In this document: piece after piece, positions 39,868 to 61,626 of the stretch
Position numbering within the stretch: the stretch's first letter is position 1
How the letters are laid out: each line of letters starts with the position of its first letter
NCBI GenBank assembly: GCA_963751075.1
Contig: CAVVTE010000011.1
Span: 291,177-355,176 of the forward strand
DNA from: an uncultured Chloroflexia bacterium
GTDB taxonomy: Bacteria > Chloroflexota > Chloroflexia > Thermomicrobiales > UBA6265
Length of the DNA: 64,000 bases
Reading direction: 5' to 3'
The notes under the pieces: model-generated
The model's database searches: none
What the model saw: the letters and a program-made list of their open reading frames with translations, nothing else
Told to the model about the DNA's origin: nothing
Translations under genes and position numbers: made by a program

Positions 39868-40063
39868 GAGGTAACTCCTTCCGCACGCCATCGTGCATCG
39901 CCATAATCGGTGTAAAGCGAGTGGATCGTAGTGGATGGTCCCCGGCGCGTCTATAGACCGTACGACTCTGATTCCGGCCATATCTTGACGGGGCGCCCGT
40001 CCAACGCGACTATGCTTTGCCTTCAGCACGAGACGTTACGAGATGCGGAAGGGAGCACTGAAG

Positions 40064-41185
40064 ATGGCGGAATCATCAGGCGTTGGCGCTAGCGGTTCGA
40101 TCGTCGCTCGCGGCGTCATCGCCCGCGAGCCCGGCGAGCCTGGGGTTGTCGAGGAGTTCACGATCGATCCCCCCGGTCCCGGCGAAGCGCTCGTTCGTAT
40201 CCTCGCCAGTGGTGTTTGTCACACCGATCTTTCCGCAAAGAACGGCGTCTTTGGCACGGACGCCTTTCCCTTCCTGCTTGGGCACGAGGGAGCCGGGATT
40301 GTCGAGCGGGTGGGAGAGGGCGTCACGAATGTCGCCCCTGGCGATCACGTGATTCTTGCCTGGCGTGCACCCTGTGGTCAGTGCCGCTTCTGTCTGTCTG
40401 GCCAACCTCATCTCTGCGCCGCCAGCCTGAATGCCGAAAAGCGCATGCGCACCATGGACGGCATCACGCTGACTCCGATTCTCGGCATCGGCACCTTCTG
40501 TACTCACACCCTGGTCCACAGCAAGCAGTGCATCCCGTATGACCCGGCCCTGCCTCCGGAGCAGATGAGCCTGATCGGATGCGGCGTGATGACCGGCGTC
40601 GGTGCCGCGCTCTACTCGGCTGGGGTGAAACCGGGGACGTCAGTCGCCGTTTTCGGCTGTGGCGGCGTCGGCGACTCGGTCATCATGGGTAGTCGCATCG
40701 CCGGCGCGACGACGATCATCGGCGTCGACATCGACCCGCGCAAGTTGGAGTGGGCGCGCGAGTTCGGCGCTACCCACACTGTCAACCCGACCGAGGGGGA
40801 TCCGATCGAGGCGATCAAGGCAATTACCGGCGGCTACGGGGTGAACTACTCGTTCGAGGCTGTCGGTCGCCCGGATACGACCCTGCAGGCGATCTTCAGC
40901 CGGGACCTCGCCGGCACCTGCGTCATCATCGGGGTGGCCGGGCCGAGATCGACACTGGAGGAATTGCCGCTCGGCAAGTTCTTCGACCTCGGTGGCAGTC
41001 TCCGCGTCTCCTGGTACGGCGATTGCCTCCCGACGCGGGATTTCCCGATGCTGGCCCAGTGGTATCAGCAGGGTCAGCTCGATCTCGATCGCGTCGTGAC
41101 CCGAATCATCTCGCTCGACGAGTCCGAAGAAGGCTTCCACGCGATGGAGCGAGGGGAGACATTGAGATCGGTGATCCGGATCTGA
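40064..41185 (+). CDS. Zinc-dependent alcohol dehydrogenase (class III-like)
   Basis: ATG 40064 after GGAAGGGAG. GVCHTDL, GHEGAGIVE, a structural-zinc Cys cluster CGQCRFCLSGQPHLC and GCGGVG. Confidence 0.9.
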   Translation: MAESSGVGASGSIVARGVIAREPGEPGVVEEFTIDPPGPGEALVRILASGVCHTDLSAKNGVFGTDAFPFLLGHEGAGIVERVGEGVTNVAPGDHVILAWRAPCGQCRFCLSGQPHLCAASLNAEKRMRTMDGITLTPILGIGTFCTHTLVHSKQCIPYDPALPPEQMSLIGCGVMTGVGAALYSAGVKPGTSVAVFGCGGVGDSVIMGSRIAGATTIIGVDIDPRKLEWAREFGATHTVNPTEGDPIEAIKAITGGYGVNYSFEAVGRPDTTLQAIFSRDLAGTCVIIGVAGPRSTLEELPLGKFFDLGGSLRVSWYGDCLPTRDFPMLAQWYQQGQLDLDRVVTRIISLDESEEGFHAMERGETLRSVIRI

Positions 41186-41434
41186 CCCCTTGGCCCACAC
41201 ATGCGGCGTCATCGCCGATCGTAGCCGGGAGAGCTGCTGTCGAACCGGGGTTCCTGACGGCGAATGTCAGGGCACTTGCTCTGGCACGAGTTAACTGGCA
41301 AACGTACGAAATCGGTCTATTGGCGCGGACAACGACTCGGTAATCTACGGTCGGAATCAAATGCCGACCTGTGCATCCACTCGATTTGGTCGCAGAACGG
41401 CGCATACGGTGCCGGATCCTGAGCGGAGGCTACG

Positions 41435-41977
41435 ATGGAGATACCGACAACCGGGGTGCATCACATCACCCTGATCGGCTCGAATCGGCAGGATACGATC
41501 GACTTCTACCAGGGCGTTCTTGGTATGCCGCTCATCTTCGAGCAGCCGAATCTGGACGTTCCAGAGGAGATCCATCTCTACTTTGACGCGGGTGATGGCT
41601 GTCTCATCACCTTCTTTGTCCGGGAGCGGCGGGCGACAGACGCCACCCCGGTTCCTGAGGTCGTCGGCAACGTCCACCACATTGCGTACTCGGTCTCGCG
41701 TGAGACATTCGACCGCGCGGCGGCGGGGTTGGAAGCGTTGGGTTTCCCCAACACCGGCCGCGTTGACCGGGGATTCATGGACTCGCTCTACTTCCGCGAC
41801 CCGAACGGACTGCTGTTGGAGTTGGCCACCTACACGTTCGAGACGCCTCCCGGCGTCACGAGACGTGCCGTCTTCGAGCTCGCTCATCGCCTGCGTGTCG
41901 AACGTGGCGACTATGCCATCGGGCAGGAGCACCTCCAGGCGGCGATTGATCGGCTTCAACCTGCCTCGGTGTCGTAA
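41435..41977 (+). CDS. VOC family / ring-cleavage-dioxygenase-like protein
   Basis: 180 aa. GVHHITLIGSNRQDTIDFY and VHHIAYSV ... LYFRDPNGLLLEL. Confidence 0.8.
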   Translation: MEIPTTGVHHITLIGSNRQDTIDFYQGVLGMPLIFEQPNLDVPEEIHLYFDAGDGCLITFFVRERRATDATPVPEVVGNVHHIAYSVSRETFDRAAAGLEALGFPNTGRVDRGFMDSLYFRDPNGLLLELATYTFETPPGVTRRAVFELAHRLRVERGDYAIGQEHLQAAIDRLQPASVS

Positions 41978-42009
41978 CCAATGGCGATTCGTCATCCGTG
42001 GGCGGCCAC

Positions 42010-43156
42010 ATGAAGCGCAGCACGGAGCGAATGCTTACGACCCACACCGGTAGCTTGCCGCGCCCTCCCGACCTCCTCGCGGAACTACTGGGTCCGGGCG
42101 GGTCAATTTTCGAGACCGAAGTACGCGATCGGGTGCGGACGGCGGTGCGTGAGGTCGTTCAAAAACAGGTGGCGGCCGGGATCGACATCGTCAGCGACGG
42201 CGAGATCGGCAAACCCGGGTTCGCACACTACGTCAAGGATCGGCTGACCGGCTTTCAGGGTGCGGTCGCGCCCAGACCGTTTGCTCCGCGAGACTTGCTC
42301 GACTTCCCCGAAGTCGCGCGGCATCTCTTCGTGTCTGATGGGAAAGAGCTCCCGCGGCCCCCGATGCCGACCAACGACGGCCCCATCGCCTACGACGGTC
42401 GCGAACAACTTGTGATGGATCTGGACAATTTCTCGGCTGCGATCGAAGGCTTGCCCATGCGAAGGCTTCCTTCCCGCTGTATCTCCAGGCTGCGTCGCCA
42501 TGCTCATGGGCACCACCTATTACCCCAGCCGCCGGGACTTCCTGTTTGCGCTGGCGGATGCGCTGCGCGAGGAGTACCAGGCGATCGTCGACCGCGGCTT
42601 CGTCCTGCAGATCGACTGCCCGGATCTTGCCCTGGGCTACCACCTGGAGTTCGTAGATCGGCCCATCTCGGAGTTTCGAGCCGTCATTGAGCTCCATGTC
42701 GAGGTCCTGAACCACGCGCTAGCCGGAATAGATCCCGATTGGATCCGGGTCCACGTCTGTTGGGGCAACTACCCTGGCCCGCACCACCACGATATAGCCC
42801 TGGCCGACATTCTCGACATCATCTACAACGTAAATGCAACCGGTCTTTCGATCGAGGGCGCAAACCCCCGCCATGAGCACGAGTGGGCGGTGTTTGAGCA
42901 ACTTCCGTTGCCCGCTGGCAAGATCTTGATCCCGGGCGTGATTGATACCTGTACCAACTGCATCGAGCACCCGGAGACGGTCGCGCAGCGGATCGAGCGG
43001 TACGCGCGGGTCGTCGGTCGCGAGCAGGTGATCGCCGGTACCGACTGCGGATTCGCGACCATCGCCGGGAGATCAGCCGTCGCGCCTGACGTCGCCTACG
43101 CCAAGCTGGCCAGCCTCGCGGAAGGTGCGCGGCTGGCCAGTGCCAGGCTTTGGTAA
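42010..43156 (+). pseudogene. Cobalamin-independent methionine synthase-like (MetE C-terminal family), one frameshift
   Basis: THTGSLPRP ... DIVSDGEIGK in the first frame. After AAIEGLP the sequence continues as EGFLPAVSPGCVAMLM ... HVCWGNY ... GTDCGF in the +1 frame, shifting near 42460. Confidence 0.8.
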
Positions 43157-43244
43157 CGATTCGATGACTCTGGAAGGGACCCCTCAAGTCCTATCCCTTC
43201 GAGAATCAAGCCACTCGGTTTTCCCGCTGCAACTCGTCAGTGAC

Positions 43245-43276
43245 ACCGCGCCTGGGCCGCCTGGCCCAGGCGCGGT
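43245..43276. terminator. Bidirectional terminator hairpin
   Basis: accgcgcctgggcc (43245-43258), loop gcct, ggcccaggcgcggt (43263-43276), between convergent genes. Confidence 0.65.
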
Positions 43277-43292
43277 CGCCTGCCGTCGCGTA

Positions 43293-44402
43293 CTACTGCC
43301 CGGCGGCTGCGGCGGCTTCTTCCACGTTGTCGATGTTGTAGATGCTAAACGGGCCCATCAGCACACGTAGCCCCTCGACATCAGGCCGGGTCGGATCCAG
43401 GGTGATCTCGTACTCACCCATCCTGCCGGCCACGAAGGTCTCGCCCTCTACGCCTTCAATTGCTCCGGTCGCCAGCAAATAGGAGACATAGTACGTCAGG
43501 TAGCCGAGATCGACGAAGCTCCAGAGCGCGTACTCCGGCGCGCATCCGTTCAGCGTGTACTCCAGCATTTCTGTCGGGTCGCCGAGACCGGAGACCTTGA
43601 TCTCGTCACAAAGCCCCTCGTCCTGAACGGCCTTCGCCGCCGAGACAATGCCGACCGAGGTCGGGGCCATGATCAGTTCCATATCCGGGTGCTTGGAGAT
43701 CAGCGCCTGCGCCTGCTCGTAGCTCTTCTCGGACTGGTCATCGCCGTAGACGACCTCTAACAGCTCGAGATTGGCGTATTTAGGATCCTCGAGATACTGT
43801 TCCAGTGCCGCGATCCAGGAGTTCTGATTCGCCGCGTCGGGCGACGCGGAGAGAATGGCAAATTGCCCACCATCCTCGCCCAGGATCGAGAGCGCCATGT
43901 CGGCCATCACCTCACCGGTTTCCGTGAAGTCGACCTGGGCTACGAACAGACTCTCGCCCTCCCCGGACGGAATAAAGGAGTCCCACGTGACCACCCTTGT
44001 CCCCGCCTCCTGAGCCGCAACGGCCGCAGGTGCGATCTGGTCGCCGGAGTTGTTGGACAGCATCACGACGTCGTAGCCGCCTGCCGGCGCATTGGTCACG
44101 AACTCGATCTGGCCCGCGACGCTGTTCTCGGCGGTCGGTCCAACGAAGTCGAGTGCCGTCGGGTTGCCCAGTTCCTCCGCGGCTTCCTGGGCGCCCTGAT
44201 TTGCCTGATCAAACACCGCGATGCCCAGGAACTTGGGCAGCAACATCATCTTGACGTCCTGCCCGGGCTCCGCGGTTACCGCCTCTCCGGCGACCGGTGA
44301 CCCAGCGACCGGGGTCTGCGCCAGAGTGACAGCCCCCATGTTCGCGACCAGCAGACCGGCGCACATGACACCGGTCAATAACCCACGCCTCTTCACGTTC
44401 AC
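43293..44402 (-). CDS. Sugar ABC transporter substrate-binding protein (RhaS/LsrB-like periplasmic binding fold)
   Basis: 369 aa. Signal peptide, then [23 protein letters not shown] typical of type-I sugar binding proteins. It is the last gene of the operon. Confidence 0.85.
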
Positions 44403-44478
44403 CTGTTCCTCCTCTTCATCGCCGAAGAATCGCCGGACTTCATCATCGCATGCTTGTGCTGGCGCCGCCGCACAGCAC

Positions 44479-45516
44479 TTACCCGGGCGCTGCCTGCGAG
44501 CGCGTGGACTCCGCCACCCCGGACGGAGGAGCGCGCATGCTCGGATCTGCCTGTCGCCGGCGAAGCCGGTCCTGCACCCGGCCGGCGAGGTTGGGCACGA
44601 GCACCGACAGAATCAACAGCAGGCCAATGATCCCCGTTTGGGTATTGCCCGTAACGCCGGCGATGATCAGGCCGTTGCGGAGGTTGAGCACCAGGTACGT
44701 CGAGAGAAGCACGCCGACCATCGACCCGACGCCGCCGAAGATGCTCACCCCGCCCAGCAGCACCACCGTGATGATGTCGAGCTCGAATCCTTCTGCCGTG
44801 CTGGCTCGCACCGCGCCCAGCCGGGCCGCCATCAGCACCCCGGCCAGCGCCGAGATGAAACCGCTCAGCGTGAAGATGATCATTCTGGTGCGCGCTACCG
44901 AGACCCCCGAAAACCGGGCCACCTGCGCGCTGTTGCCGATCACGTAGGTCAGCCGTCCCAGCCCGCTCCGGTGAAGCACGACGGCGGCAATCACGGCCAG
45001 CACCGCGAAGATCAGGATTGAAAGCGTCAGCGGCCCGATCAGACCCCGCTGTCCCAAATTCGTAAACCACTCGGGAAACCCACCGACCGACCGGTCCTGG
45101 ACCAGCAAGCGCGCGAGGCCGCGAAATCCAACGTAGCCCGCCAGCGTCACCGCTAGCGAGCTCAATCCAACGACGGCGACGAAGTAGCCGTTGAGCAGAC
45201 CGAATCCGATGCCGACGCCCAGTGCCACAAGAATGGCCAGCACCATCGGCGCCCCGGACTCGAAGAGGGCCGCCGTGACAGCCGCCGAGAGTCCCATCAT
45301 CGAGGCCACCGACAGGTCGATCTCGCCACTGATGATGACGAAGGTCATGATCAGGACGACGATGGCCTTCTCGATCCCGAGCTGAAAGAGATTGACCTGG
45401 TTGCTAATCGTCAGGAAGTTGGGCACGCGGGTGATGTTGTAGGCCAGGATCACCAGCAGGACGACGAGGAGCAGTCCCTCCCAGCTCCGCAGGCGACGGA
45501 GCATCTCACGCGCCAT
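44479..45516 (-). CDS. Sugar ABC transporter permease (RhaQ/RbsC-like)
   Basis: 345 aa, about 9-10 TM segments, branched-chain/ribose-type permease pattern [13 protein letters not shown]. Confidence 0.9.
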
Positions 45517-46576
45517 GGGCCACTCCTCGCTCCTCGGCTATGGCGGCCTGCGCGCGCGCGTGATCGCGGCGGCGAACGCGAACCCACATCTCCCGCAATC
45601 GACCCAGGATGATCGTATCTGCCGTAACGGCGACCAGAATCAGGAGACCGAGGATGGCGTCCTTGACGAACTCGCTGACGCCCGCCCAGCGTAAGAGACT
45701 CTGTTGCAGGGTCTCGATCATGAGCACGCCGAGCACCGCTCCGAACATCGAGCCCGCTCCCCCGAAGATATTGACTCCACCGACGACCACCGCGGCCACG
45801 ACCTGCAATTCCAGTCCTTGTGCCGCCGTCACCGTGATATTGCCAAATCGCACCAGGAACATGAACCCGGCCAGGCCAGAGAGCGTGCCGGAGATGGCGA
45901 ACGCGGTAAATACGTCCCGCTGCACCGGCAGCCCGGCCGTCCGCGCCGCCTCCGGATTCGATCCAATGGCATAGAGTCGGCGCCCGAACGGCAGGTACCG
46001 CAACACCAATTGACCGAGAATGGCGACCAACAACGCGACGCCCACCATCAGTCGCAGGTCGTAGCCTCCAGCAGACGCCAGGGTCGCGCTCGGTACGTCG
46101 TTCAGCCAGTCCGGAAGATCAGCGGTGGTGACCGTCCTGGCGCCGGAGAACTCGACGAGCACCACCCGGTAGAGTGCCAGCGTCCCTAACGTGGCGATGA
46201 TGGCCGGCACCTTGCCGTAGGCGACGATCAGACCGTTGATCGCACCCAGGACGAGACCGATCGCCATCGCCAGAGCCGCGGCAACAAGCGGATGCATCCC
46301 CTCGACCCGCGTCAGGAGCGTGCCGACGACGTAGGCCGTCAGCCCCACCATCGAGGAGACCGACAGGTCGATGTTCCGGGTCAGCACGACCAGCACCTGT
46401 CCGACCGCCACGACCAGCGTTATCGCCAGCCCCGTCGTGAGCCGGTTCACGCTTCGGGGGTCGAAATAGTTCGGAATCTGCGAGGCGAAAAAGAGGAGTA
46501 ATCCGATAGTCACGAAGAGCAGGATGAACTCGCGGAACTGCTCCGGCCGGACGCGGCGGAGAATCGAATCGCTCAC
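45506..46576 (-). CDS. Sugar ABC transporter permease (RhaP/RbsC-like)
   Basis: 356 aa. [12 protein letters not shown]. Overlaps both neighbouring genes. Confidence 0.9.
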
Positions 46577-48225
46577 TGACGCTCTCCATCAACAAGGCCG
46601 CCGCCTGCGACCAGTCGATCTATCGCTGCGATCGCCTCTGCCGCCGCGGCCCGGTCGATCCCTTCTTCCTCGGGGAGGACATCGCTGGATTGCCCCATGG
46701 CCGCCGAAAGCACCCGCTCCTGCGTGGCTTCGTGGTGGTCGAAGATGGCCATCTGCCGACCCTCACGCATGACCAGGACACGATCGCTCATCGCCAGCAC
46801 CTCAGGCAGATCCGAGCTAATGAGGATGATCGCCATTCCTCTGGCCGCCAGGTCGTCGATCAGCTGATGAACCTCCACCTTCGCGCCGACGTCGATGCCG
46901 CGCGTCGGCTCGTCGAGGATCAGCACCTTGGGGTTCGTCTCGAGCCACTTGCTGATCACCACCTTTTGCTGGTTGCCGCCGGAGAGTGATGCCGTTGGTG
47001 TTTCAACCGACGCGGCCCGAATGCTCAATCGTTGCCGGAAGGCCTCGGCGGCGGCGCGCTCCTGGGAGCGACGCACCATCCCACTTGGAGACAGAAAGCG
47101 TGGCAGAGAGGGCAACGAAACATTTGCTGCGATCGAAAGAGGCATCACCAGACCGAGTTGCCGCCGGTCCTCGGTGCTGTATGCGATCCCGAGCTCCATC
47201 GCGTCGCGAGGGTTGGTAATGGTCACCCGCCTCCCCTCGAGTTCGATCTCGCCGGCGTCCGCCGGGCCGATCCCGAACAACGCCAGTCCGATATCGGTCC
47301 GGCCTGCCCCCACGAGACCGGCAAACCCCAGCACCTCCCCGGCCCGCAGCTCGAAGGAAACGTCCTGAAACACGCCCTCCCGGCCGAGGCCACGCACAGC
47401 CAGCAACACCGCGCCCGGTTCTCGCCGTGAGCGCCGGAAGAGCTCCTGCACCTCGCGTCCGACCATCTGCCGAATCGCTGCCCCTGGCGTCAGCTCGGCA
47501 CGCGGTGTCGTCGAGATCCACCGGCCGTCGCGCAGAATCGTCACCCGATCGGCGATTTCGAACACCTCTTCCATTCGGTGCGAGATGAAGAGGATCGCCA
47601 CCCCTTGCTGGCGCAGCGTATGCACGATGCGAAAAAGCTGCTGCACCTCATGCGCTGAGAGCGACGCCGTCGGTTCGTCCATGATCAGCACGCGTACGTC
47701 GAGGGAGATCGCCTTCGCGATCTCGACCGTTTGCTGCTCGGCGAGGGTCAGGCCACGAGCTGGTTCGCCGACGTCGAGACTCATGTCGAGCCGGGCCAGC
47801 ACCTCCGCCGCCTCTCGCTCCATCCCCCGCCGGTCGACAAGCTTCCCCCGATTGCGGTGGCCAATGAAGATGTTCTCCGCCACGGACAAGTCCGGGAAGA
47901 TCATCGGCTCCTGATAGATCGCGGCGACGCCGAGCCGTTGCGCGTCCTGCGACGAGGTAACCCGGACCGGCTTCCCATCGATTCGGATCTCGCCCGCATC
48001 CTGGGTCTGGATGCCGGTCATGATCTTGATCAAGGTCGATTTGCCGGCGCCGTTCTCGCCCAACAGCGCGTGGATTTCGCCGCGTCGTAGCGCCAGAGAA
48101 ACGTCGTCGAGCGCTAACGTGGCCCCGAACTGCTTCGAGACGCGCTCCATCTCGAGCACCGGGTGCTCTTCCCCGGTCGCCATGGGCTCTACGTTAAGCG
48201 ACCGCTCCGTCACGGACTGGATCAT
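46573..48225 (-). CDS. Sugar ABC transporter ATP-binding protein, duplicated ATPase (RhaT/RbsA-like)
   Basis: Two NBDs: GENGAGKST / [11 protein letters not shown] / LIMDEPT and LSGGNQQKV / LILDEPTRG. An alternative start is ATG 48183. Confidence 0.9.
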
Positions 48226-48248
48226 TCCGTTCGCGCCCCTCGTTCCGG

Positions 48249-48280
48249 GCCCCGGGAGCCGAGGCCTCGGCTCCCGGGGC
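48249..48280. repeat. Perfect 32-bp GC-rich palindrome
   Basis: gccccgggagccgagg/cctcggctcccggggc, about 25 nt upstream of the ATPase ORF start at 48225 (minus strand). Confidence 0.6.
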
Positions 48281-48337
48281 TCGGTCGGTCTTCTTGAACT
48301 CTGAGGGCCGCCATGAAAGCACAGTCGGCTTCAGGAC

Positions 48338-48425
48338 GCAACCGGCAGCACTAGCGACAACGCTCGCCCAACCGCAGCACCCACGGCTGCGCTTACCCAA
48401 CCAGAGCACTCACGACTCCGCTCAC
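48338..48425. repeat. Three degenerate tandem repeats of about 29 bp
   Basis: Units 48338-48367, 48368-48396 and 48397-48425 share CCAACC(G/A).AGCAC..ACG.CT.CGCT.AC. Units 2 and 3 match at about 23 of 29 positions by eye. Confidence 0.5.
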
Positions 48426-48646
48426 CCGACCACCCTCGTCTTCAAATGATCCCCTCGGACTCATCACCGATCGGGCAGCACGAGCCCGTCGCGGCTCGAC
48501 GCGCCGCAGCGCAACGAGGCATCCAGGTGGAGAACGGCGTCACGATTCGGCAGCTCCTCGAGGGATAACGCGCCGGTCGTCTGTCACGGCGTGATCTCCT
48601 GATCCAGGTCCGTTCCCCTGAAATCACAAAATCCTCTTTCAAAATA

Positions 48647-48660
48647 AGAACATATGTTCT
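48647..48660 (+). promoter_or_regulatory. LexA (SOS) box of the GAAC-N4-GTTC type overlapping a -10-like hexamer
   Basis: AGAACATATGTTCT is a perfect palindrome in a locally AT-rich stretch. TATTAT at 48660-48665. The RepA-like ORF starts about 95 nt downstream. Confidence 0.55.
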
Positions 48661-48759
48661 ATTATGGATGCTCTTGTTGGCCGATCAAGCGCTAATGCGG
48701 CTTTCGGCGCGTGATCTCACACGAATGCGCGACCACCGGGATCGCCTGGAGGGGACAGG

Positions 48760-50202
48760 ATGATGGCTGCAGACGGCGCGGACAACGAGCCGGACCAGGT
48801 GCCGGACGCCTTCTTGGAGGCCGTGCGCCCGGAGCACCGCGCGGACCTGCGCGCCCTCGTGCAAACCGCGCAAGAGCCGCCGCCGAACAATGCGGCGTCC
48901 GATCGGCGCGCCGACCGGACCCCGGATGACGACTCCGGCGCTGGCGAAGGTAGCCCGCGCTCCCCCAGGTCGACCCGCGAACCGTTCCCTGCCCTCAACC
49001 CGGCCCAGTCGGCGCGCGTCACCAACGCGTTGATCGTCGCCGCTGAACGATTGGCGGGAGTCCCCATCGCTCACAGCCTCATCCAGTCCCCGGACGCACC
49101 GTCCCGGACTACGGAGCTGCCGGGCACGACCGGCATGACCGGCCGTCAGTCGCTGGGAAACGCCGTCCGCCTCAGTGACGTCACCCCGGAGCGAATCCGC
49201 TGGCTCTGGCCGGGTCGTGTCCCCGCCGGTAAGATCACCGTCCTCGATGGCGATCCCGGTCTCGGCAAGAGCACGCTTCTCTGCGAGGTCGCCGCCCGCA
49301 TCACTCGTGGCGACCCCCTCCCCGGCGGCGAACCGGCTGCCCCCCGGGGCGTCCTCCTCTTGTCTGCCGAGGACGACCTCTCGACACCATCCGCCCTCGC
49401 ATCGATGCCGCCGGCGGCGATCCCGACCGCATCGGCACCCTCCTCGCCATTCCGGATCGCACCGAAACCGGACGGCCCTTCTCCATCCCTGGCGACCTCC
49501 CCATTCTCGATGCCGTCGTTGAACGGCTCGATGCTGCCCTCGTCATCGTCGACCCGCTCGTCGCCTATCTGCGCCCCGGCATCAGCGCCAATCGGGACCA
49601 GGATGTCCGCCGGGCCTTGGCCGCCCTCAAGGCCTCGGCTCGAGCGCACCGGCGCCGCCATCGTCGTCGTTCGCCATCTCAACAAGTCGGCGCAGACGAA
49701 CCCGCTCTATCGCGGCCTCGGCAGCATCGGTATCATCGGCGCCGCCCGCTGTGCCCTGCTCCTGGCCGCCGATCCCGACGATGCCGACCGCCGCATCCTT
49801 GCCGTCAGCAAAGGCAATCTCGCTCGTCCTCCCGCCGCCCTCGCCTTCCGCCTGGATGATGTTCCCGGCACCGATGTCGCGCGTATCGTCTGGGAAGGAG
49901 AGAGTCCCTGGACGGCTGGCGAGCTCCTCGGCCGCCTGCCGGCCGAGGAGGGTGATGAGTCGCGCTCCGCCGTCGATGACGCCCGTGCCTGGCTGCGCGA
50001 AGCCCTGGCGGCCGGACCGCGTCCCGCGAGTGAGCTGCGCCGGGAATCCGCCGCCCGCGGGATTGGCCTGTCCACCCTCTATGCGGCGCGCAAGGCCGAG
50101 GGCATCGCGACCGCGAAGGAGCACATCGCTAGGGGCCGCTGGCTGTGGATGCTCCAGGACAACTCAGGTGGACGTGAAGATGCGGTCCCTTCCGGCTCGT
50201 GA
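48760..50202 (+). pseudogene. RecA-fold AAA ATPase (RepA / AAA_25-like, mobile-element type) with two compensating frameshifts
   Basis: GGAGGGG-N5-ATG. ERIRWLWPGRVPAGKITVLDGDPGLGKSTL, with Walker A. Between about 49382 and 49641 the conserved sequence (DTIRPRIDAAGGDPDRIG ... LVIVDPLVAYL ... DVRRALAALKA) is in the +1 frame, then returns to ERTGAAIVVVRHLNKS. Confidence 0.75.
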
Positions 50203-50205
50203 GAT

Positions 50206-50232
50206 GTTCAACACCTTCAACATCTTCAACAC
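50206..50232 (+). repeat. Three tandem 9-bp iteron-like repeats
   Basis: GTTCAACAC CTTCAACAT CTTCAACAC, starting 4 nt after the ATPase stop. Confidence 0.6.
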
Positions 50233-50452
50233 ATTTGATCCCAACCAGCACCGCTGCGTGAACCGGTAATCCGCCACACCCAGCTGACATCGTGCCGTGA
50301 CAGACTCCTTCGCCGGAACTCCGTGGGACTGACTCCGGAGCGGAGCGAACGCACTTTCACAGGCAGCCCCGCGAAAGCGCTATTGGCGATACACTACAGA
50401 CGCCCTCGGCGCGATGTGACGCGGCCCATCTACTCTGGAGCGACGACTGCTT

Positions 50453-50731
50453 ATGGACGGCTCCTGGTTCAGTTGGCTGTCTCGTGCTCTTTCGAAGTTG
50501 TCCACCCGTCGAATGCTCTTAATACTAGTTGGCGCGGTTGCCGCTGGCCTCGGTCAGCGCGGTGTCTTCGGCACCCAGCTTGGGCCGGCGACCTGTGGAA
50601 GTGAGGGCGAAGCCTGCATCCTGGCGCATGGCTGTTGCAGTGGGTTCACCTGCGCGACCTCAGGTCTAACACCAACTATGGCGTTTGCGTTACTGGATCG
50701 GGCGGGATGCTGCCGGCGTCATCGTCCCTGA
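50453..50731 (+). CDS. TAT-signal cysteine-rich small secreted protein (hypothetical; frame uncertain at the 3' end)
   Basis: STRRMLLILVGAVAAGLG twin-arginine signal, then TCGSEGEACILAHGCCSGFTCA (C-x6-C-x5-CC-x4-C). Moderate SD, GGAG 12 nt upstream. Confidence 0.4.
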   Translation: MDGSWFSWLSRALSKLSTRRMLLILVGAVAAGLGQRGVFGTQLGPATCGSEGEACILAHGCCSGFTCATSGLTPTMAFALLDRAGCCRRHRP

Positions 50732-51097
50732 TCTCCCCCCATAGCAAGACTATCAATGAAGACGTCGTTAGCCTTGCGGAATCGGTTGCCACCATTGAGT
50801 CCGCTGCCTCCGGAACAGACCTGGCGGCCGAAAGCGACGCCCGCATCGCCGCGGCCGGGACCGCAAGGACAAAAGCGCGACCAGGCGGAAGTCACGCCGG
50901 GACAACAAGCGGACCACCCGCCGGACGCGTAACGACGACCAACCGAATCGCCGAGCTGAGGCTACGAAGACACCAACCCCTACTCGGACGCCGAACCCAA
51001 CCCGGACACTCCGACCCGAACCCGCCCAACCCGGACTCCCACTCCTACGCGGACCCCGACCCCGACCCCAACGAGCACGCCGGACCCTGCGGAAGGT

Positions 51098-51520
51098 TTG
51101 GCGGTGGAGGTGACCTGCCCTCAAGGTCAGAGGGCGAGCCAGGTCGTCACAATAACGAACAACAGCACGAGAGACGTTGTCGTCGGCCAACTGACCTCCC
51201 TCGAGGTCACGCCTGGAGGTGACGAGCCGTTTCAAGCACTGGGAACAGTCCCTGCCGGATCCGCCCTTGAAATCTTCTTCGGTACGGCTCCATCAGGGGA
51301 CCCTTACTCCAACGAGCTGATCTTTAGCGCCTCTCCGCTAGAAGGCGTGCGCGTTACCTTCAGCACAGGAGCCGTCCTCACAGCTTGTTGCGACGGGGCG
51401 ACATCCTGTCTCGGGCAAGGAGCGCAGGTAGCCGGACTTCGAGCTGAGACCGCGGGAGAGCGTACGCCATCCGATCGCAGACCGATGAGCGACAAACGCA
51501 AGTCAAAGAAGAGACGATAG
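51098..51520 (+). CDS. Hypothetical beta-rich domain protein, or the C-terminal part of a frameshifted secreted protein
   Basis: 140-aa ORF VEVTCPQGQRASQVVTITNNSTRDVVVGQLTSLEVTPGG ... with a basic tail KRKSKKRR. The same frame upstream encodes a Pro/Thr linker from 50960. Lower GC than the flanks. Confidence 0.35.
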   Translation: MAVEVTCPQGQRASQVVTITNNSTRDVVVGQLTSLEVTPGGDEPFQALGTVPAGSALEIFFGTAPSGDPYSNELIFSASPLEGVRVTFSTGAVLTACCDGATSCLGQGAQVAGLRAETAGERTPSDRRPMSDKRKSKKRR

Positions 51521-51537
51521 AGGCGGGTTGATAGAGC

Positions 51538-52027
51538 GTGGGCGCCGATCTTGCCCGCCGTGGTCTCCGCACGGCCATTGTTCTGCCTGTGGCCTTGGTC
51601 GCCGTCTTCTACGGCCTTCGCCTCGCTCCAAGGGACCCGACAGGCGGCGTGCTCAGCCCGACTGTGCTGGAGGAGGTGCGCGCGGAGTACCGCGAGCGTC
51701 TTGGTCTCAATGAGCAGATCCTGGTCCAATACGGCGTGTACGTGAAAAATCTCGCCTGAGGAGACCTGGGCACGACACTCATTACCGGCAAGTCGATCGG
51801 CAAGTAGCTTGGATTCTATGGCTGCAACAGCCTGGTGCTCGGTCTCGCCGCGACCATCCTTATCTCCCCTTCCGAGCCTCGGGGTGATGATCGCCGAGGG
51901 GAGGAACTACATGCTGCAAAGCCACTGGGTGACCACCGTCCCGGGCGTTGCTATCGTGGCCGTCGTCCTGGGTTTGAACCTCCTCGGCGATGGGTTGCGC
52001 GACGTGCTCGATCCGAGACTGAAGTAG
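51538..52027 (+). pseudogene. Chimeric remnant of peptide ABC permease genes (DppB N-terminus fused to DppC C-terminus)
   Basis: N-terminus ...LRLAPRDPTGG...GLNEQILVQYGVYVKNLA, in-frame TGA, then GDLGTTL. A second stop follows, then the C-terminal GVMIAEGRNYML...LNLLGDGLRDVLDPRLK. More than 1 kb of the expected sequence is missing. Confidence 0.75.
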
Positions 52028-52156
52028 GCGGGCAGCCCAGGAGTCGAGACCTCGGGAGTCGCGGGCAAAGGAGCACCGGCAATCCAGAACCCAACACCCT
52101 TCTCCCCTTCACCCCGTCACCCCATTGCTGTCGACGTAGCGATCGTCGGCGGAGGC

Positions 52157-53356
52157 GTGGCTGGTTCGACGCTGGCCATCGTCCTCGCCAGAGCTGGAGT
52201 GAAGGTCGCCGTCATCGAGCGCGAACGTCGGTTTCGCGACCGTGTTCGCGGCGAAGCGCTGATGCCGTGGGGCGCGTCGCTTGCGGCCGCGCTAGGAATA
52301 GACGACCTCCTCCCCCAGTCGGGAGCGCACCCGCTGCCGATCTGGCAAACGTACATCGGCCGCGAGCCGCGGCCACCACACGACTGGCGATCAGACTCTC
52401 CAACCGGTGAAAGTCTGTGGGGTATCAGCCATCCCGGTCTTCAACAGACCTTGCTCGAGTCGGCACGTGCGGCCGGCGCCCTTGTTCTTCGTCCCGGCAA
52501 GGCCCATCAGCCTCAGCGGGATCGCCGGGGGTCGTTCGTCCTTCCAGTCGAGAGCGCCGATGGGTCGGGTGAAGTTCGGGCTCGGCTCGTCGTCGGCGCG
52601 GACGGACCCGAATCCGGCGTCCGGAGCTGGATGGGTGCGAAGACCATGCGCGATCCGGTTCGCCACGCTATTGGCGGCTGCTTGATCGATGGTATCGATC
52701 TCGATCCCGCCGCGGCGCACATCGGCTACTACCCGGGTGGAGCGTCGTTCATCTTTCGCCAGGAGACTGGGCGCGCCCGTGTCTACCTCTTTACGGGTCT
52801 CGAAGCCGCGAAGTCCATGCGCGGTGAGCGTGCTGCAAGTGCGATCATCGAGACGAGCAGGGCCTCGTTACCGGTGGGATCCCTCGAAGATGCCCGTCCG
52901 GTCGGACCCGCCGCGTTCTTTCCCGGCGCGGATATCTTTGCGAGTCATATTGCCGGGGAAGGCATCGTCCTCATCGGAGATGCCGCCGGGGCGAACGACC
53001 CGACGCAAGGGCAAGGACTATCTCTGGTGTTCAAGGACGTTTCAGTGCTGAGCGAGCTTCTCCTGTCGACAGCGGATTGGCAGGAGGCGATCGAGGAGTT
53101 CGCCGCCCAGCGGCGTCGCTGGTACGAGCCACTTCGAGCCTTTGCCGAGTGGGTTGGTCCATTGGTCATCGGCGTCGGGCCGGAGGCGGACGATGCCCGC
53201 GCGCGAGCGGATCGAGCCCGGGAGCTCGACCCGTTCCAGAATGGGTACGGAGCGATCCATACCGCCGGCCCGGACGGGCTTCCTGTGACCGAGGACGCCC
53301 GACGCCATCTTCTGGGCGAGGATCTGGACGATGACCTGGCGCGGGAGCCAACATGA
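52157..53356 (+). CDS. FAD-dependent monooxygenase (UbiH/aromatic hydroxylase-like)
   Basis: The Rossmann motif begins upstream of the called GTG (DVAIVGGGVAGSTLA spans 52133-52177). No ATG/GTG/TTG lies in frame between the stop at 52025 and 52157. C-terminal GDAAGANDPTQGQG. Confidence 0.75.
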   Translation: MAGSTLAIVLARAGVKVAVIERERRFRDRVRGEALMPWGASLAAALGIDDLLPQSGAHPLPIWQTYIGREPRPPHDWRSDSPTGESLWGISHPGLQQTLLESARAAGALVLRPGKAHQPQRDRRGSFVLPVESADGSGEVRARLVVGADGPESGVRSWMGAKTMRDPVRHAIGGCLIDGIDLDPAAAHIGYYPGGASFIFRQETGRARVYLFTGLEAAKSMRGERAASAIIETSRASLPVGSLEDARPVGPAAFFPGADIFASHIAGEGIVLIGDAAGANDPTQGQGLSLVFKDVSVLSELLLSTADWQEAIEEFAAQRRRWYEPLRAFAEWVGPLVIGVGPEADDARARADRARELDPFQNGYGAIHTAGPDGLPVTEDARRHLLGEDLDDDLAREPT

Positions 53357-55580: not shown

Positions 55581-56808
55581 TTGACATCACCTGATTCAAG
55601 CGCGGAGATGAAGGGGCCCGCGGGCCTCGGGTTCTCCAGCCGCGCTGTCCACGTGGGAGAGCGTGGGCCGCGCCCCGACTTTACTCCAACCACCACACCG
55701 ATCTACCCCGCCACCGCCTTTGTCTACGACGACACCGATACACTCGACGCGGTATTCGGGAACGAGCGTCAAGGTTACGTATACACTCGCTATGCCAACC
55801 CGACTACGAGCGCGCTGGAAGCGGCGATCGCATCGCTCGAAGGTACGGAGGACGCCGTGGCGTTTGCGTCCGGAATGGGCGCCGTATATGCCGCAATGCT
55901 CCTCGACGCGCGCGCCGGGCAGTGCATCGTGGCCGCGCCTGATGTCTACGGCGCTACCTACGCCATTCTCCACCGGCTCCTGCCCACGCTTGGCATCGAG
56001 ACCACCTTTGTCGACCTCCGCGATCTCCAGCAGCTCGAGCGGGTGGTGGAGACCTCCCGCCCGGCGCTGATCTATGCCGAGACGATTTCGAATCCACTGC
56101 TGCGCGTCGCCGATCTCCGCGAGGTCACGACTCTCGCTCATCGCCATGGCGCTCGGGTCGCGGTCGATAACACCTTCGCCACACCCTGGTTGGTCAACCC
56201 CGCCGCGCTCGGCGTGGATTCCGTTATCCACTCGACCACCAAGTACCTTGGGGGACACGGCGACGTCACCGGTGGTGTGATTGCCACCACCGCCGAGCGC
56301 GGAGCGGAGCTGCGCGAGATCAACAAGCTGATTGGATCGGTCGCCGGTCCGTTCGAGTCATGGTTGACGCTGCGCGGATTGAAAACTCTTCCCCTGCGAA
56401 TGAAGCAGCAGAGCGATAACGCGCGTGCCGTGGCCGACTGGCTCGTCGGCGACTCCCGGGTCTCGCGGGTCAATTACCCCGGCCTGCAGCATCTCGGCGG
56501 CGCCGGAGGCGATGTTCAACCGGCCTGAGCGCGGTGGGATGATCTCGTTCGAGGTTCGCGACGCCGCACGGGACGACATTTTCCGCTTCTTCGAGGCGCT
56601 CACGCTCATCGTGCCGGCCACGACGCTCGGGGATGTCTACAGTCTCGTGCTCTATCCGACGATCTCCTCTCATCGGGCTGTGCCCGCGGAAGAGCGGGCG
56701 AAAATCGGAATCTCGGACGGGCTCGTGCGTTTGTCGGTCGGAATCGAGGATGTCGAAGACATCATCGCCGACCTGGACCGAGCATTGGCCGCGGCAGACC
56801 GGGGCTAG
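55581..56808 (+). pseudogene. PLP-dependent Cys/Met metabolism enzyme (cystathionine gamma-synthase / O-acylhomoserine sulfhydrylase-like), one frameshift
   Basis: YTRYANPT ... DNTFATP ... HSTTKYLGGHGD in frame 1 to VNYPGLQH. It then reads PEAMFNRPERGGMISFEV ... SLGDV.. ... RLSVGIEDVEDIIADL in another frame, shifting near 56495. Confidence 0.85.
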
Positions 56809-56838: not shown

Positions 56839-58033
56839 ATGGCAATCGCAATGGCAACGGATGCGAAAGTCGATACCTTGCGGGCACAGTTGCCCGCGGT
56901 GCAGACCACCGGCTATTTCAATGCCGGTTCCAATGGCCCGATTCCGAGAATCTCCTACGAAGCTGCCGACATGACCGCCCGCGCGCGAGCTCGAGCAGGG
57001 ACGGATCATTCCCGGGACATTTCGCGACAACCGCGAACGCAACCGGGGTGTAGCCGCACTGGCCGCCGGAATATTCGGCGCCGATCCTGACGAGATAGCC
57101 CTCACCCACAGCGCTACCGAAGGACTTTGCATGGCCCTCATGGGGCTAACGTGGGATCCGGGTGATGAAATCGTTACCACCCTGGAAGAGCATCCCGGGC
57201 TCCTGATGCCGCTCGCGCTCCTCGCTCGACGATTTGGCGTTGTTACCCGGTACGCTGATATTGGTGACGGCTCGTCGGGTGTAGTCGAGGCTCTGGCGAG
57301 TCAGATCACCTCTCGCACGCGTCTCATCGCTCTGTCGCACGTTCTCTGGTCGACGGGCGCCGTGCTTCCGCTGCGCGACATCAGCGAGCTTGCCCGGCGC
57401 CATGAGCTCATGGTCGTGGTGGATGGAGCGCAATCCGCCGGCCAGGTGCCAGTGGATCTCCACGCGTTGGGCATTGATGCCTATGCGATGGCCGGCCAGA
57501 AATGGCTCTGCGGGCCGGAAGGGACCGGCCTGCTCTATATCCGCCGGGATCGATTTGCCGATATCGCACCGACCTACGCCCGCTACGGACAGTTCGAGCC
57601 GAGTGGCTACTTCATCCCCGCGAAGGGCGCAATGCGGTACGAGATCGGCGAGTTCTACCCTCCGGCGGTGGCCTCCCAGGAGGCAACGCTGCGCTGGCTG
57701 CGCGACGATGTCGGGTTCCAATGGGCGTACGATCGCATCGCTGGCCTGGGCGCCGACTTCCGTCGCCGGCTGACGGACATAGACGGAGTGACCGTGGTTA
57801 CCCCGAGCGAACCAATGGCGGGGTTGGTGAACTTCAATATCGCGGGTCTGCCTCCACAGGAGGTGGAGACCCGGCTCTTCGAGCGCGGCTACACCATTCG
57901 CTATGTGGAATCAGTGCCCTGCACGGTTTCGGCTCGAGCATCGCTGGGATGGTGGAACACCGAAGATGAGGTGGCGGGTCTCGCGGATGCGGTGGCGGAT
58001 CTCGCACGGGAAGCGCGTGTGCTGAGTGGGTGA
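56839..58033 (+). pseudogene. Class V aminotransferase / cysteine-desulfurase-like, one frameshift
   Basis: N-terminus TGYFNAGSNGPIPRISYEAADMT, then a frame change near 56980 into ARELEQGRIIPGTFRDN ... LTHSATEGL ... VDGAQSAGQVPVD ... AMAGQKWLCGPEGTG. Confidence 0.85.
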
Positions 58034-58970: not shown

Positions 58971-61626
58971 ATGATGGGCGAATTGCCGCGTGGCACCGTC
59001 ACCTTTCTCTTCACCGACGTCGAGAATAGCAGCGCCCTCTGGGAGCGTGACGGTGCGACGATGATGACCGCGCTTGCCCGGCACGTCTCCCTGTTGAGGG
59101 AAACCGTGGAGGCTCACGGTGGGTGTCCTCTTCAAGACCGTTGGGGACGGGACGCAATCTGCCTTTCCGACCGCTCCCGCCGCGCTGAATGCCGCCTGTG
59201 CCGCGCAGCGTGTGCTTCTCGCCGAGCAATGGCCGGACACGCTCGGCCCGTTGCGGTCCTGTATGGCGCTCCACGCTGGCGAGGCTGAACCGCGAGACGG
59301 CGACTACCTCGCCGCTCCACTCAACCGCCTGGCGCGGCTCCTGGGCATGGCCCGCGGTGGTCAGATCCTGGTTAGCGAGGCCGTCGAGCAACTTGCGCAG
59401 GATGGTCTCCCTGTGGGTGGGAGGCTTCAGGAGCTCGGCGAGATGCGCCTGCGCGACCTGAATCGCGCCGAGCGGGTGTTCGTTCTCGTCCACCCGGACC
59501 TTCCGGGCGATATCGCCCTACCATCCGCCTCAGAACAGCAAACCCGGCACTTTCCGCCATCCTTGACCCCGTTCGTCGGCCGCGACGATGAAATTTGCGC
59601 TATCGCGGCGCTGGTGGAGGCGCCGAATGTCCACCTCGTCACACTGACCGGACCCGGCGGCATCGGCAAGACGCGACTGGCCATCCAGGTTGGCGAGCGC
59701 CTGGCTTCGTCGTTCGTGGGAGGAGCGGTATTTGTCGATCTTGCGCCATTGCGTGACCCGGCACAGGTATTGCCGGCGATAGCCACCGCGCTCGGTCTTC
59801 GCGAAGCAACCGGCCGCTCGCTCGTCAACCAGATCCACGGCTTTCTCGCGGAGCGGGAGACTTTGCTGATCCTCGACAACTTCGAGCACCTGCTCGGCTC
59901 GGCGACCATCATAGCCAATCTTCTCGGCGAATCGGACGTCGAGCTCCTCGTCACCAGTCGCGCGCCCCTGCGGCTTCAAGGCGAGCATGAGTACCCGGTG
60001 CCAACCTTACGGCTTCCGAGCGACGCGGAACGAAATGACGCCACTGCGCTTGCGATGAACGAGGCGGTCGCGCTCTTCGTCGATCGCGCCCAGGCGGTTC
60101 GCCCGGATTTCGTGTTGACCGACGCCAACGCCTCCGTGATTGCCGATATCTGCGCGCGGCTTGATGGATTGCCGCTGGCCATCGAGCTCGCCGCGGCCCG
60201 GGTCAAGGTCCTGCCTCCCGCGGCGTTGCTAAGCCGGTTGGAGCGACGGTTGCCATTACTCACGGGGGGCCGGCGTGATGCCCCGGAGCGGCAAAGAACG
60301 CTGCGTGACACCATCGCCTGGAGTCACGGTCTGCTTGCTCCCGAGGAATGCACGCTCTTCCGGCGGCTTGGGGTCTTTGTCGGCGGGTGGACGCTCGAGG
60401 CTGCCGAGGGGATCGTCAATCCGGACGAGGACCTCGACGTTCTGGGAGGTCTCACGACGTTAGTGGAGATGAGTCTTGTCCGCCTCGATGAGTCCGGCGC
60501 AGAGCCGCGCTTCGGCATGTTGGAGACTATCCGCGAGTTTGCCGTCGACCGGCTCAGTGAGGCAAACGAGGACGTCTCGATCCGCGAGCGCCACGCCGCC
60601 TTCTTTCTCGCCTTTGCTGAAGAGGCTGAACCAGAGCTCGTTCGCGCCAACCAGGTTGAATGGTTCGATCGGTTAAGCGCGGACGGCCCAAACATCACCG
60701 CCGTCCTCGGTTGGCTTCTTGAACAGAATCGGATAGAAGAGGGACTGCGGCTATGCGTTGCCATGCGGTTCTACTGGTTCCGGCGTGCGCCGTTCGGCGA
60801 GGGAAGCCGGTGGTTTTCGGCATTCCTGGAGAGACAAGTTCCCACAGTCGCGCCTCAAATCCGGGCCCGTGCGGTCGCCGCCGCCGGCACCTTCAATCAT
60901 TGGTTGGGCAACCTCGACAGGGCACGCGCGCTCTACGAGGAAGCACTTTCTCTGTTCCGAGAGGCCGTGGACCTGATTGGGGAGGCGCGACTCCTCCGGA
61001 ACCTCGCGAGTGTGTCGATCGACCTCGGCAAGCTGGACGAAGCTGAGACGCTTATTCACCAGAGTTGCGAGGTTGCCGAACGGAGTGGCAATCCCCGCAG
61101 TGTCGCCGACGCCATCGGACTGCGCGGAACGCTGGCGTTCGCCCAGGCGGATTATGAGCGCGCGGTGGCCGAGCTCAAGGACGCGAGCGAGCGCTACCGC
61201 GCCCTGGGAGACGTCGCGTCCCTCATGGACGCCACTGGAGACGCCGGGTACATGATGGCATTGCAGGGTGACGTTGCCGGAGCCGGCCGACTATTTGAAG
61301 AGTCTCTGAATCTGGCCGTTGAGCTCGGAGCGCGCGATCGGATCAGCTGGGCGCTTCTTGGCGCCGGGAACCTTGCGGCGAACACCGGTGAATCTGCACA
61401 GGCCGTTCGCCTGCTTGCCGCGGCCGACCTCATTCAGCGGTCCATGCAAGAGGATCTCAGGCCCAGTGTCGACAATATACAGAACCGAATCCTTGAGGAG
61501 CAGCGGCAGAGTCTTGGCGAGACCGCGTACCTGGCGGCCTGGGAAGAGGGTCGTGTCCTTCAGATGGAGCGGGCCGTGGCTGAGGCGCGAGCGGTTATCG
61601 CAACGCTCTCAGCGCGGGTTCGTTGA
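58971..61626 (+). pseudogene. Adenylate/guanylate-cyclase-domain / P-loop NTPase / TPR signal-transduction protein, one 5' frameshift
   Basis: MMGELPRGTVTFLFTDVENSSALWE ... EAHGG, then the +1 frame gives VLFKTVGDGTQSAF (shift near 59120). Walker A GPGGIGKTRLA, LILDNFEH, long C-terminal TPR-like repeats. Confidence 0.8.

Follow-up and report, generated by a model that had tools for sequence, protein, structure and literature searches.

Does a 92-aa open reading frame (ORF) at positions 50453-50731 (+) in a stretch of Chloroflexota DNA encode a small, exported knottin-like peptide, or is it a piece of something larger? The stretch ("the window") comprises 64,000 nucleotides of contig CAVVTE010000011.1 from an uncultured Chloroflexia bacterium of the Thermomicrobiales. 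A first interpretation made from the letters alone (the sequence-only reading) had described the ORF as a twin-arginine (Tat) signal peptide followed by five cysteines with knottin-like spacing. Based on comparison with homologues, we conclude that the ORF is the 5′ fragment, about the first quarter, of a disrupted gene of ~1.07 kb (~355 codons) at 50453-51520. The ancestral protein, as reconstructed, is made up of a Tat-type signal, a domain resembling an inhibitor cystine knot (ICK), an Arg-rich helix, a Pro/Thr (PT) linker, an Ig-like beta-sandwich and a polybasic tail, in that order. We consider this identification of the ORF, and the anatomy of the ancestral protein, very probable.

The disrupted gene at 50453-51520

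The features that first drew attention to the ORF are present at exactly the coordinates and in exactly the sequence given for them. The translation is the one quoted in the sequence-only reading; residues 17-23 are S-T-R-R-M-L-L, with the twin arginines at codons 19-20 (50507-50512), and a Gly/Ala-rich hydrophobic run comes next. The pattern C-x6-C-x5-CC-x4-C is formed by Cys 48, 55, 61, 62 and 67 (50594-50653; codons of Cys I-V at 50594-96, 50615-17, 50633-35, 50636-38 and 50651-53 (+)). It occurs once across the six frames of the window and in none of 50 shuffles, and we do not attribute it to chance because it is invariant in homologues (see below). The ORF starts with ATG, has GGAG 13 nt upstream and encodes an intact signal peptide. 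It ends out of frame, past the first of three frameshifts, in the tail LTPTMAFALLDRAGCCRRHRP, with the stop at 50729-50731. The sixth Cys, which had been placed in the adjacent frame, is indeed there, at 50686-50688 in the context NTNYGVCV, within an ORF starting at 50635 that encodes …SNTNYGVCVTGSGG….

The frame-joined sequence, used as a protein query, returned a single match, P0001 (165 aa, 65% identical), which is continuous across six Cys and reads …GCCSGFTCVTSGTNTSYGICVTGSGGMMAASSSLISPHSE…. Intact relatives encode the sixth Cys in the same frame as the others, in the context …CCSGFTCVTSxxNTxYGxCV…. The 714-bp contig that carries P0001 (L001) aligns with the window at 80% DNA identity, with 1-nt gaps in the window after 50660 and after 50861. 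The first gap is within 5 nt of the single indel that had been guessed near 50665. That indel does split off the sixth Cys, but it is one of three frameshifts, and the adjacent operon genes have been destroyed as well. When P0001, P0037, P0042 and P0104 were used as tblastn queries, the window protein could be traced through frames 2, 1, 0 and 2 to the ancestral stop codon at 51518-51520. In addition, a scan of one genome per species located a syntenic locus with an intact gene (340 aa, 7366-8388) in a metagenome-assembled genome (MAG) of an uncultured Sphaerobacteraceae bacterium (L002). Given that three one-base losses move the frame from 2 to 1, to 0 and back to 2, the flagged ORF is the first quarter of the ~355-codon gene.

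The reconstructed gene lies entirely on the + strand. It begins, in frame 2, with the predicted Tat-type signal peptide (aa 1-40, 50453..50572), followed by the start of the mature protein with Cys I-V of the knot domain (QLGPATCGSEGEACILAHGCCSGFTCATS, 50573..50660). One base is then lost at 50660..50661 (window ACCT-CAGG vs L001 ACCTCCGG), and frame 1 carries the remainder of the knot domain with Cys VI, a conserved extension TGSGGMLPASSSLISPHSK and a linker (50662..50861, a stretch with 66% identity to P0001). The second lost base, at 50861..50862 (window GGGAC-CGCAAGG vs L001 AAGGCTCGCAAGG), leads into frame 0 and an Arg/Lys-rich segment (RKDKSATRRKSRRDNKRTTRRTRNDDQ) that corresponds to the long basic helix of intact orthologues, with the first Pro/Thr linker repeats behind it (50862..51005). 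The third frameshift (frame 0 to 2) is a net change of −1 nt within an ACNCCN Pro/Thr repeat at 50985..51010, in which the exact base is unplaceable. The rest of the gene, in frame 2 at 51008..51520, comprises the Pro/Thr linker, the Ig-like beta-sandwich (LAVEVTCPQGQ…GVRVTFSTGAVLTACCDG) and a polybasic tail, SDKRKSKKRR. This last domain is spanned by one high-scoring segment pair with P0042, an intact protein of 309 aa (P0042 …ASPLEGVRVTLASGVVLHACCDGTTTCLGQ… vs window …ASPLEGVRVTFSTGAVLTACCDGATSCLGQ…). Thus, what had been taken for a small knottin-like peptide is instead the N-terminal domain of a multidomain protein of ~300-355 aa.

A codon-usage frame scan was too noisy for placing the frameshifts and gave no coding signal across the gene. 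We ascribe this to an unusual amino-acid composition, which intact orthologues have in common, and not to decay. An Rfam scan of 49800-52200, including the 250-nt leader, found no regulatory RNA. It should be noted that two of the homologues are short: P0001 (L001 211-708) has a TAG straight after the Arg-rich helix, six bases from the contig end, and P0104 (152 aa) ends inside the PT linker. These may be natural short forms that lack the beta-sandwich, or further decayed copies.

Pseudogene or assembly error

Either the window comes from a pseudogene-rich genome or its assembly is prone to indels. We think that the window copy is probably a real pseudogene within a decayed operon, and the adjacent genes are what tip the balance. 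Behind the knot gene stop at 51520 the orthologous spacing is kept up to the start, at 51538, of a DppB-type permease remnant (51538..51861 (+), aa 1-108 only). Two in-frame stops interrupt it, at 51757-59 and 51805-07, in place of a Gln and a Glu of the orthologue. Next is a DppC-type permease remnant (51821..52027 (+), the last ~65 aa, from residue ~243), and ~1.4 kb of the two permease genes is deleted in the window relative to L002 and to another related locus, L007. The gene for the solute-binding protein (SBP) and a second Cys-rich gene, both described below for relatives, are absent from the window locus. Indel noise would produce neither nonsense substitutions nor a large deletion, which makes real operon decay the likelier explanation.

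The region upstream has also been altered. The mobile-element remnants mentioned in the sequence-only reading are represented, directly upstream, by a phage/plasmid-type AAA_25 (RepA-like) replication ATPase gene at 48760..50202 (+) with two frameshifts (frame 1 to 0 to 1). This gene is hidden under a 480-aa ORF, with its true middle (…DTIRPRIDAAGG…LVIVDPLVAYL…) encoded in a different frame. Once repaired, the protein aligns over >90% of its length with phage AAA+ and replication proteins, at ~30% identity. It stands at the end of ~13 kb of other genes (37217-50452) between the knot gene and a FAD oxidoreductase gene (35921-37216, 83% identical to that of L007); the corresponding intervals are 1328-5538 in L007 and 3678-7365 in L002. 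The ~13-kb stretch holds NIF3, GMC oxidoreductase, Zn-ADH and Meth_synt_2 genes and a sugar-type ABC transporter, and the difference from the relatives is, as judged from the aligned loci, a rearrangement or insertion. Downstream, an intact FAD_binding_3 monooxygenase gene (52157..53356 (+)), a frequent downstream neighbor of the family locus, serves as a synteny anchor only.

Several observations weigh against decay, however. At least 10 other genes of the 64 kb are split by single frame changes, well-conserved ones among them. These include PALP (20083-21169, two ORFs that match profile positions 3-143 and 146-295), an SBP_bac_5 paralogue spread across three frames (19153-18135, minus strand), Cys_Met_Meta_PP (55590-56766) and Aminotran_5 (56863-58006), the last two with one shift each. 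Meth_synt_2, and probably the acyl-CoA dehydrogenase, NIF3 and DHDPS genes, are also split, with ORFs that cover them only partly (further split-gene coordinates in the window are 34843-35721, 36933-37955, 41998-43156 and 62446-63207). In Cys_Met_Meta_PP, a G run contains a 1-nt insertion, and the parts of the product before and after it match the orthologue at 74% and 80% identity. With so many split genes, assembly indel errors could explain all three frameshifts. The gene would then be intact in the organism and the three missing bases would be errors of, for example, uncorrected long reads. This would also fit the ratio of nonsynonymous to synonymous substitution (dN/dS), which for the window compared with L001 is 0.24 over the gene as a whole and 0.14 in the knot and indicates that the gene was constrained for most of its history, and the corrected frames keep the third-position GC bias of intact orthologues. 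Yet the shifts are clustered, with five in 48.7-51.5 kb vs none in ~14 kb of neighboring long genes, the sites in the knot gene are not long homopolymers, and the two substitution-type stops of the DppB remnant and the ~1.4-kb deletion go beyond indel noise. We therefore regard assembly error as unlikely, although it deserves to be kept in mind. As dS is ~1.1 at the overall dN/dS given above, any inactivation would be recent relative to the divergence of the window and L001.

Genomes were scanned for the strain in a separate assembly, with an orthologue of 38% identity as the sole find, and a metagenome scan with close-relative patterns found no near-identical copy. In practice, what was flagged as an ORF appears to be a cut-short version of a broken gene whose operon has decayed; the annotation should call it a pseudogene, or reads should be consulted. 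The window also encodes an 835-aa STAND-type NTPase (59119-61626, AAA_22/NB-ARC and TPR) and a 489-aa protein with a cupredoxin/plastocyanin domain (32867-34336), both unrelated to the knot gene.

The intact family and its gene neighborhood

The sequence-only reading had suggested a search for a conserved family, and one exists in Chloroflexota (Thermomicrobiales), with an RR signal and the pattern C-x6-C-x5-CC-x4-C-x(10-11)-C. Searched with the L002 protein, the databases yielded 42 homologues of about 280-355 aa, all "hypothetical" and with no Pfam domain; the few named members are from Thermomicrobiales or Chloroflexota MAGs. A profile of the knot block, run against 1.84 billion representative proteins, gave 92 matches at E ≤1e-3 and 69 at ≤1e-10. 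The six-Cys motif C-x6-C-x5-CC-x4-C-x9-12-C was found in 110 of the 126 proteins fetched, RR upstream of the motif in 105 and a polybasic C-terminus in 75. Two profile matches, P0099 and P0107, lack the knot motif and were rejected as spurious. The six Cys are invariant in the alignment of full-length members (A3) and invariant or nearly so in an alignment that takes in N-terminally truncated fragments (A4). The Gly residues that flank the CC doublet, T61, T64, S65, N68, Y71 and G72 are invariant or nearly so in both. The family consensus of the knot is QLGPxTCGxAGDVCTMLxGCCxGLTCVTSAINTNYGVCVSGGSGGTVxxGTSLISPFSE. Mean column identity is 79% in the 60-aa knot block vs 45% in the whole protein; by this measure, the knot domain is the most conserved part of the family protein.

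The weaker profile matches have the same type of N-terminal signal, the pattern C-x6-C-x5-CC-x4-C-x10-11-C and an NPNxGxC ending; behind the knot they have one or two different beta-sandwich domains along with PT linkers, and many end in a poly-Arg tail. In the family at large the linker is rich in Thr or in Pro and Thr. The core subfamily, to which the window copy belongs, additionally carries an Arg-rich helix of ~50 aa. A knot-like motif is also found repeated, apparently outside Thermomicrobiales: P0119, P0122 and P0120, all matched by the knot profile, have 2-4 tandem C-x6-C-x5-CC-x4-C-x(6-9)-C units (e.g., DRCYQDGEICINAFVCCGGLSCVRRSGQRVGIC) behind Sec-type or lipoprotein-like N-termini.

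Pfam and NCBIfam scans gave no match for the ORF, the frame-corrected N-terminus or the C-terminal domain, and no model at threshold for the 42 members and 10 distant relatives. What did appear in the family scans was noise (New_glue, SCO2400_fam and MAP_0585_fam at 15-17 bits vs cut-offs of 55-170) and further sub-threshold matches to toxin, LTD and Dickkopf models. Literature searches found no description of the family, its architecture or its context.

Gene order was compared in 36 loci, many of them on short contigs where nothing but the neighboring SBP or DppB gene is visible. In ~22 of the 36, all or part of the order SBP_bac_5, (second Tat/Cys protein), knot gene, DppB, DppC is present. 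In its fuller form the order starts with the FAD oxidoreductase, SBP_bac_5 and (in parentheses above) a second RR-signal, polybasic, Cys-rich protein. It continues downstream of the knot gene with the DppB-type and DppC-type permeases, the FAD_binding_3 monooxygenase, an ADP-ribosylglycohydrolase (opposite strand), Cys_Met_Meta_PP and Aminotran_5. The gap between the knot gene and the first permease gene is often short (about 15 nt to over 300 nt), and the distant members P0043 and P0042 have the same gene order. Across loci the permeases are 75-85% identical vs 32-45% for the knot protein. From these neighborhoods, co-expression of the knot gene with the importer is likely in most lineages. 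The link is not universal, and two kinds of loci count against it: one lineage has UDG, the knot gene and the FAD monooxygenase with no transporter, and a metagenome locus (L021, 3233-4044) has an apparently intact knot gene beside fragmented DppB and DppC genes. In this second case the transporter has decayed much as in the window, an indication that loss of the importer need not entail loss of the knot gene.

The second gene, which often precedes the knot gene (L002 5810-6880, L007 3845-5221, L006 4641-5528, L034 1846-3192), is itself uncharacterized. Its product has a signal of the MDxxRFDRF…SRR type, a polybasic stretch KSRRNKRRDRRKERQEKKKKRNEE, a different Cys-rich region and a final domain of ~230 aa with no Pfam match.

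How might the intact protein work? Any answer must be tentative, and we think it somewhat doubtful that the whole picture that follows (export, knot head, tethering and partnership with the importer) is correct. The protein would be exported by Tat and then cleaved after an AxA-like site. Its head, locked by disulfides upon oxidation, would be a heat- and protease-stable binding or inhibitory module, and the Arg-rich helix and Lys/Arg tail would retain it electrostatically on polyanions, those of the envelope or others. At most of the loci, co-transcription with a Dpp/Opp-type peptide importer would be probable, and the protein would then likely act in the same extracytoplasmic space as that importer. 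As the sequence stands, the window copy is expected to perform none of these functions.

Alternatively, the intact protein could be secreted as a polycationic effector of antimicrobial action or competition, its knottin head being like that of tachystatin or the plant knottin antimicrobial peptides, rather than serve the peptide importer as an envelope-tethered accessory. Mature family proteins are strongly basic (median net charge +10, median pI 9.3), there is sub-threshold similarity to tachystatin A and toxins, evolution is fast outside the knot compared with the flanking permeases (identities above) and the gene persists without the transporter in some lineages. We nonetheless judge this role improbable: no conserved immunity or export partner gene is adjacent, the chromosomal position is stable across the order rather than in a variable island, and a protein of 300-355 aa with a structured sandwich is unlike known knottin antimicrobial peptides.

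Putative knot domain, predicted export signal and known systems

Is the conserved head a knottin? The ICK spacing consensus is CX3-7CX3-8CX0-7CX1-4CX4-13C. The family spacing, C-x6-C-x5-CC-x4-C-x11-C (x10-11 in distant members), is inside it, and the window copy matches the six-Cys spacing only once its frame is corrected. In an AlphaFold2 (AF2) model of the knot alone (predicted local distance difference test [pLDDT] of 73), strands are predicted at 14-16, 25-29, 36-41 and 47-49, with Cys V (27) and Cys VI (39) on a central hairpin. The top five PDB matches to this model in Foldseek are all knottins (Magi4, asteropsin B, asteropsin A, bleogen and JzTX-V), with target-normalized TM-scores of 0.32-0.62 (0.46-0.62 for the top four) and sequence identity of 20-33%. 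When the knot profile was searched against PDB sequences, 7 of the 11 best matches were knottins, among them DkTx (E 0.05), wrightide R1, SHL-I, Aca toxin and tachystatin A; other names among the matches are Xt3a, prokineticin Bv8 and Dickkopf-2. The commonest Pfam matches are Toxin_7, Toxin_12, Tachystatin_A and conotoxin O, along with Dickkopf_N, Colipase_C and Stig1.

None of these matches to knottin families is statistically significant, which tells against the assignment. The Foldseek E-values of the knottin matches are 2.1-5.3 and not significant; for so small a domain an E-value of 2-5 carries no weight. Matches of the profile to PDB sequences have E of at least 0.05 (DkTx being the best) and are not significant either, and those to Pfam have E of at least 0.007, all below threshold (at least 0.024 for Toxin_7 and Toxin_12). 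Hence, of the knottin resemblance first noticed, the spacing and the identity of the neighbors have stood, but every match is sub-threshold. The assignment "knottin-like" is consistent but unproven: the fold is a prediction, and so is the disulfide connectivity that an ICK would have (I-IV, II-V and III-VI, the third bond threading the ring), which the model coordinates did not yield.

Could the six Cys instead bind a metal or Fe-S cofactor inserted in the cytoplasm, as a small metalloprotein module rather than a disulfide knot? Many Tat substrates use Tat because of their cofactors. Such cargo would explain the Tat signal, the six invariant Cys are directly behind a Tat-type signal, and the knottin matches are, as noted, all sub-threshold. 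However, the C6C5CC4C11C spacing fits the ICK consensus exactly and has a CC doublet with no CxxC or CxxCxxC, there are no conserved His or Asp ligands, the AF2 model has the knottin arrangement of Cys V and Cys VI on one beta-hairpin, and the best structural neighbors are all disulfide knots. Moreover, a conserved Cys pair in the beta-sandwich fits an oxidizing destination. We consider a metal site quite improbable.

Far less probable still, despite the start codon, GGAG and signal peptide of the 92-aa ORF, is its expression as written or the restoration of its frame by programmed ribosomal frameshifting; we reject both, the seven-Cys secreted peptide of a different fold because its tail is in none of the ~110 homologues, all continuous in frame, and frameshifting because there is no slippery heptamer at 50655-50665 and three consecutive shifts would be required.

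We return to the knot as the head of a larger protein. An AF2 model of family member P0002, built on the 42-sequence alignment, has a mean pLDDT of 79.8. It predicts an n-region helix (3-15, pLDDT 51-61 in 10-residue block means), a disordered signal (16-40, below 50), the knot domain (43-84, 76-80), a single long helix (119-170, above 90), the beta-sandwich (174-297, above 90) and a C-terminal helix (306-335, 65-90 in 10-residue block means).

The signal of the window copy comprises an n-region helix (MDGSWFSWLSRAL), S-T-R-R-M-L-L, a short Gly/Ala-rich h-region and a basic c-region, GQRG, with a likely cleavage site at VFG↓TQLGP. The Tat call was made with the consensus (S/T)-R-R-x-F-L-K, applied at the boundary of the n-region and h-region. 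Conservation of R15 and R16 in the family is 90% or more, and 38 of 40 full members match a regular expression for the twin-arginine motif. Their uncharged h-region has 11-17 residues and a Kyte-Doolittle hydropathy of 0.2-2.6 (mostly 1.1-2.6). The c-regions carry Arg or Lys (QRGRAA↓Q, ARGANA↓S and, in the window, GQRGVFG↓T), and AxA-like cleavage sites are seen (RAA↓QLGP, ANA↓SQPGP). Clustered positive charges hinder Sec translocation, and the use of a Tat signal would be understandable because polybasic stretches are poor Sec substrates. Across the family the signal features fit Tat, and export by this route is a prediction from them. Tat components have been reported in Chloroflexi genomes (PMC3827258); no Tat genes are within the 64-kb window. 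One difficulty must be faced: Tat normally moves folded proteins and three disulfides usually form outside the cell, so the export route, or else the assigned fold, may be mistaken.

An amphipathic n-region helix, MDxxRFDxL(T/A)RxL, precedes the RR in P0002-P0126 and in the product of L002 5810-6880, the mature proteins of which are unrelated. The conserved helix may be a lineage-specific extension of the Tat signal (e.g., a chaperone or targeting element).

Knottins are valued as scaffolds of extreme stability, and theirs is an essentially eukaryotic story. That the intact family is a true bacterial ICK family, with a three-disulfide head on a polycationic, envelope-bound, Tat-exported protein that works with a peptide ABC importer, is in our opinion unlikely as a complete statement, yet much would follow. 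It would be the first structurally and genetically tractable bacterial knottin, and it would pose a puzzle of Tat quality control, in which the knot is either oxidized in the cytoplasm of thermophile-related bacteria or carried unfolded by Tat. The family, with ~110 members, a strongly conserved six-Cys head, a predicted Tat signal and a recurring operon position, offers a concrete test set for whether the ICK fold exists in bacteria and how multi-disulfide, polybasic cargo passes Tat.

How, then, does the family compare with systems that are already known? The best fold matches of the C-terminal domain model are the Ig-folds of lamin A/C and B1 and ApaG (target-normalized TM-score near 0.5), but the likeness is weak. 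Foldseek E is 0.01-0.04, the lamin tail domain (LTD, PF00932) is below the Pfam threshold (E 0.0023, in 2 of the 42 members), and the C-terminal domain of the window has no match in Pfam, PF00932 included, at E up to 1. The family sandwich also differs from LTD and ApaG in having its own conserved Cys pair. The likeness is a generic sandwich resemblance, without functional implication.

By position, the knot gene resembles a component of a Dpp/Opp (PepT-family) importer operon, located between SBP_bac_5 and two BPD_transp_1 permease genes. However, the operon lacks ATPase genes of its own, the knot gene survives transporter loss, and we know of no Dpp/Opp system that has such a component.

With Tat substrates, the family shares (S/T)-R-R-x-(F/L)-(L/F), a short, weakly hydrophobic h-region, a basic c-region and an AxA-like site, and the SBP next to the knot gene in L002 has a comparable RR signal. 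Tat typically carries folded enzymes that contain cofactors or are oligomeric, whereas the cargo here is Cys-rich and strongly polybasic, and the conserved n-region helix MDxxRFDxLTRxL is unlike the signals of usual Tat substrates.

Predicted "bacterial knottins" are listed in the KNOTTIN database, recognized by sequence signatures and none with an experimental structure, and the database paper says nothing about Tat signals, their domain architecture or the operons around them (PMC5753296). A further comparison is with the ICK miniproteins of spiders (DkTx, also called Tau-theraphotoxin-Hs1a, Magi4 and JzTX-V), sponges (asteropsins) and plants (wrightide and bleogen). The bacterial family shares with these the six-Cys spacing, Gly before and after the CC doublet and a predicted hairpin carrying Cys V and VI. 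It is set apart from them by a knot of ~60 aa with a conserved 20-aa extension (SGGSGGTVxxGTSLISPFSE), by a twin-arginine signal in place of an ER/Sec signal, and by the place of the knot at the head of a multidomain protein of 300-355 aa, whereas the miniproteins are free peptides of 30-40 aa.

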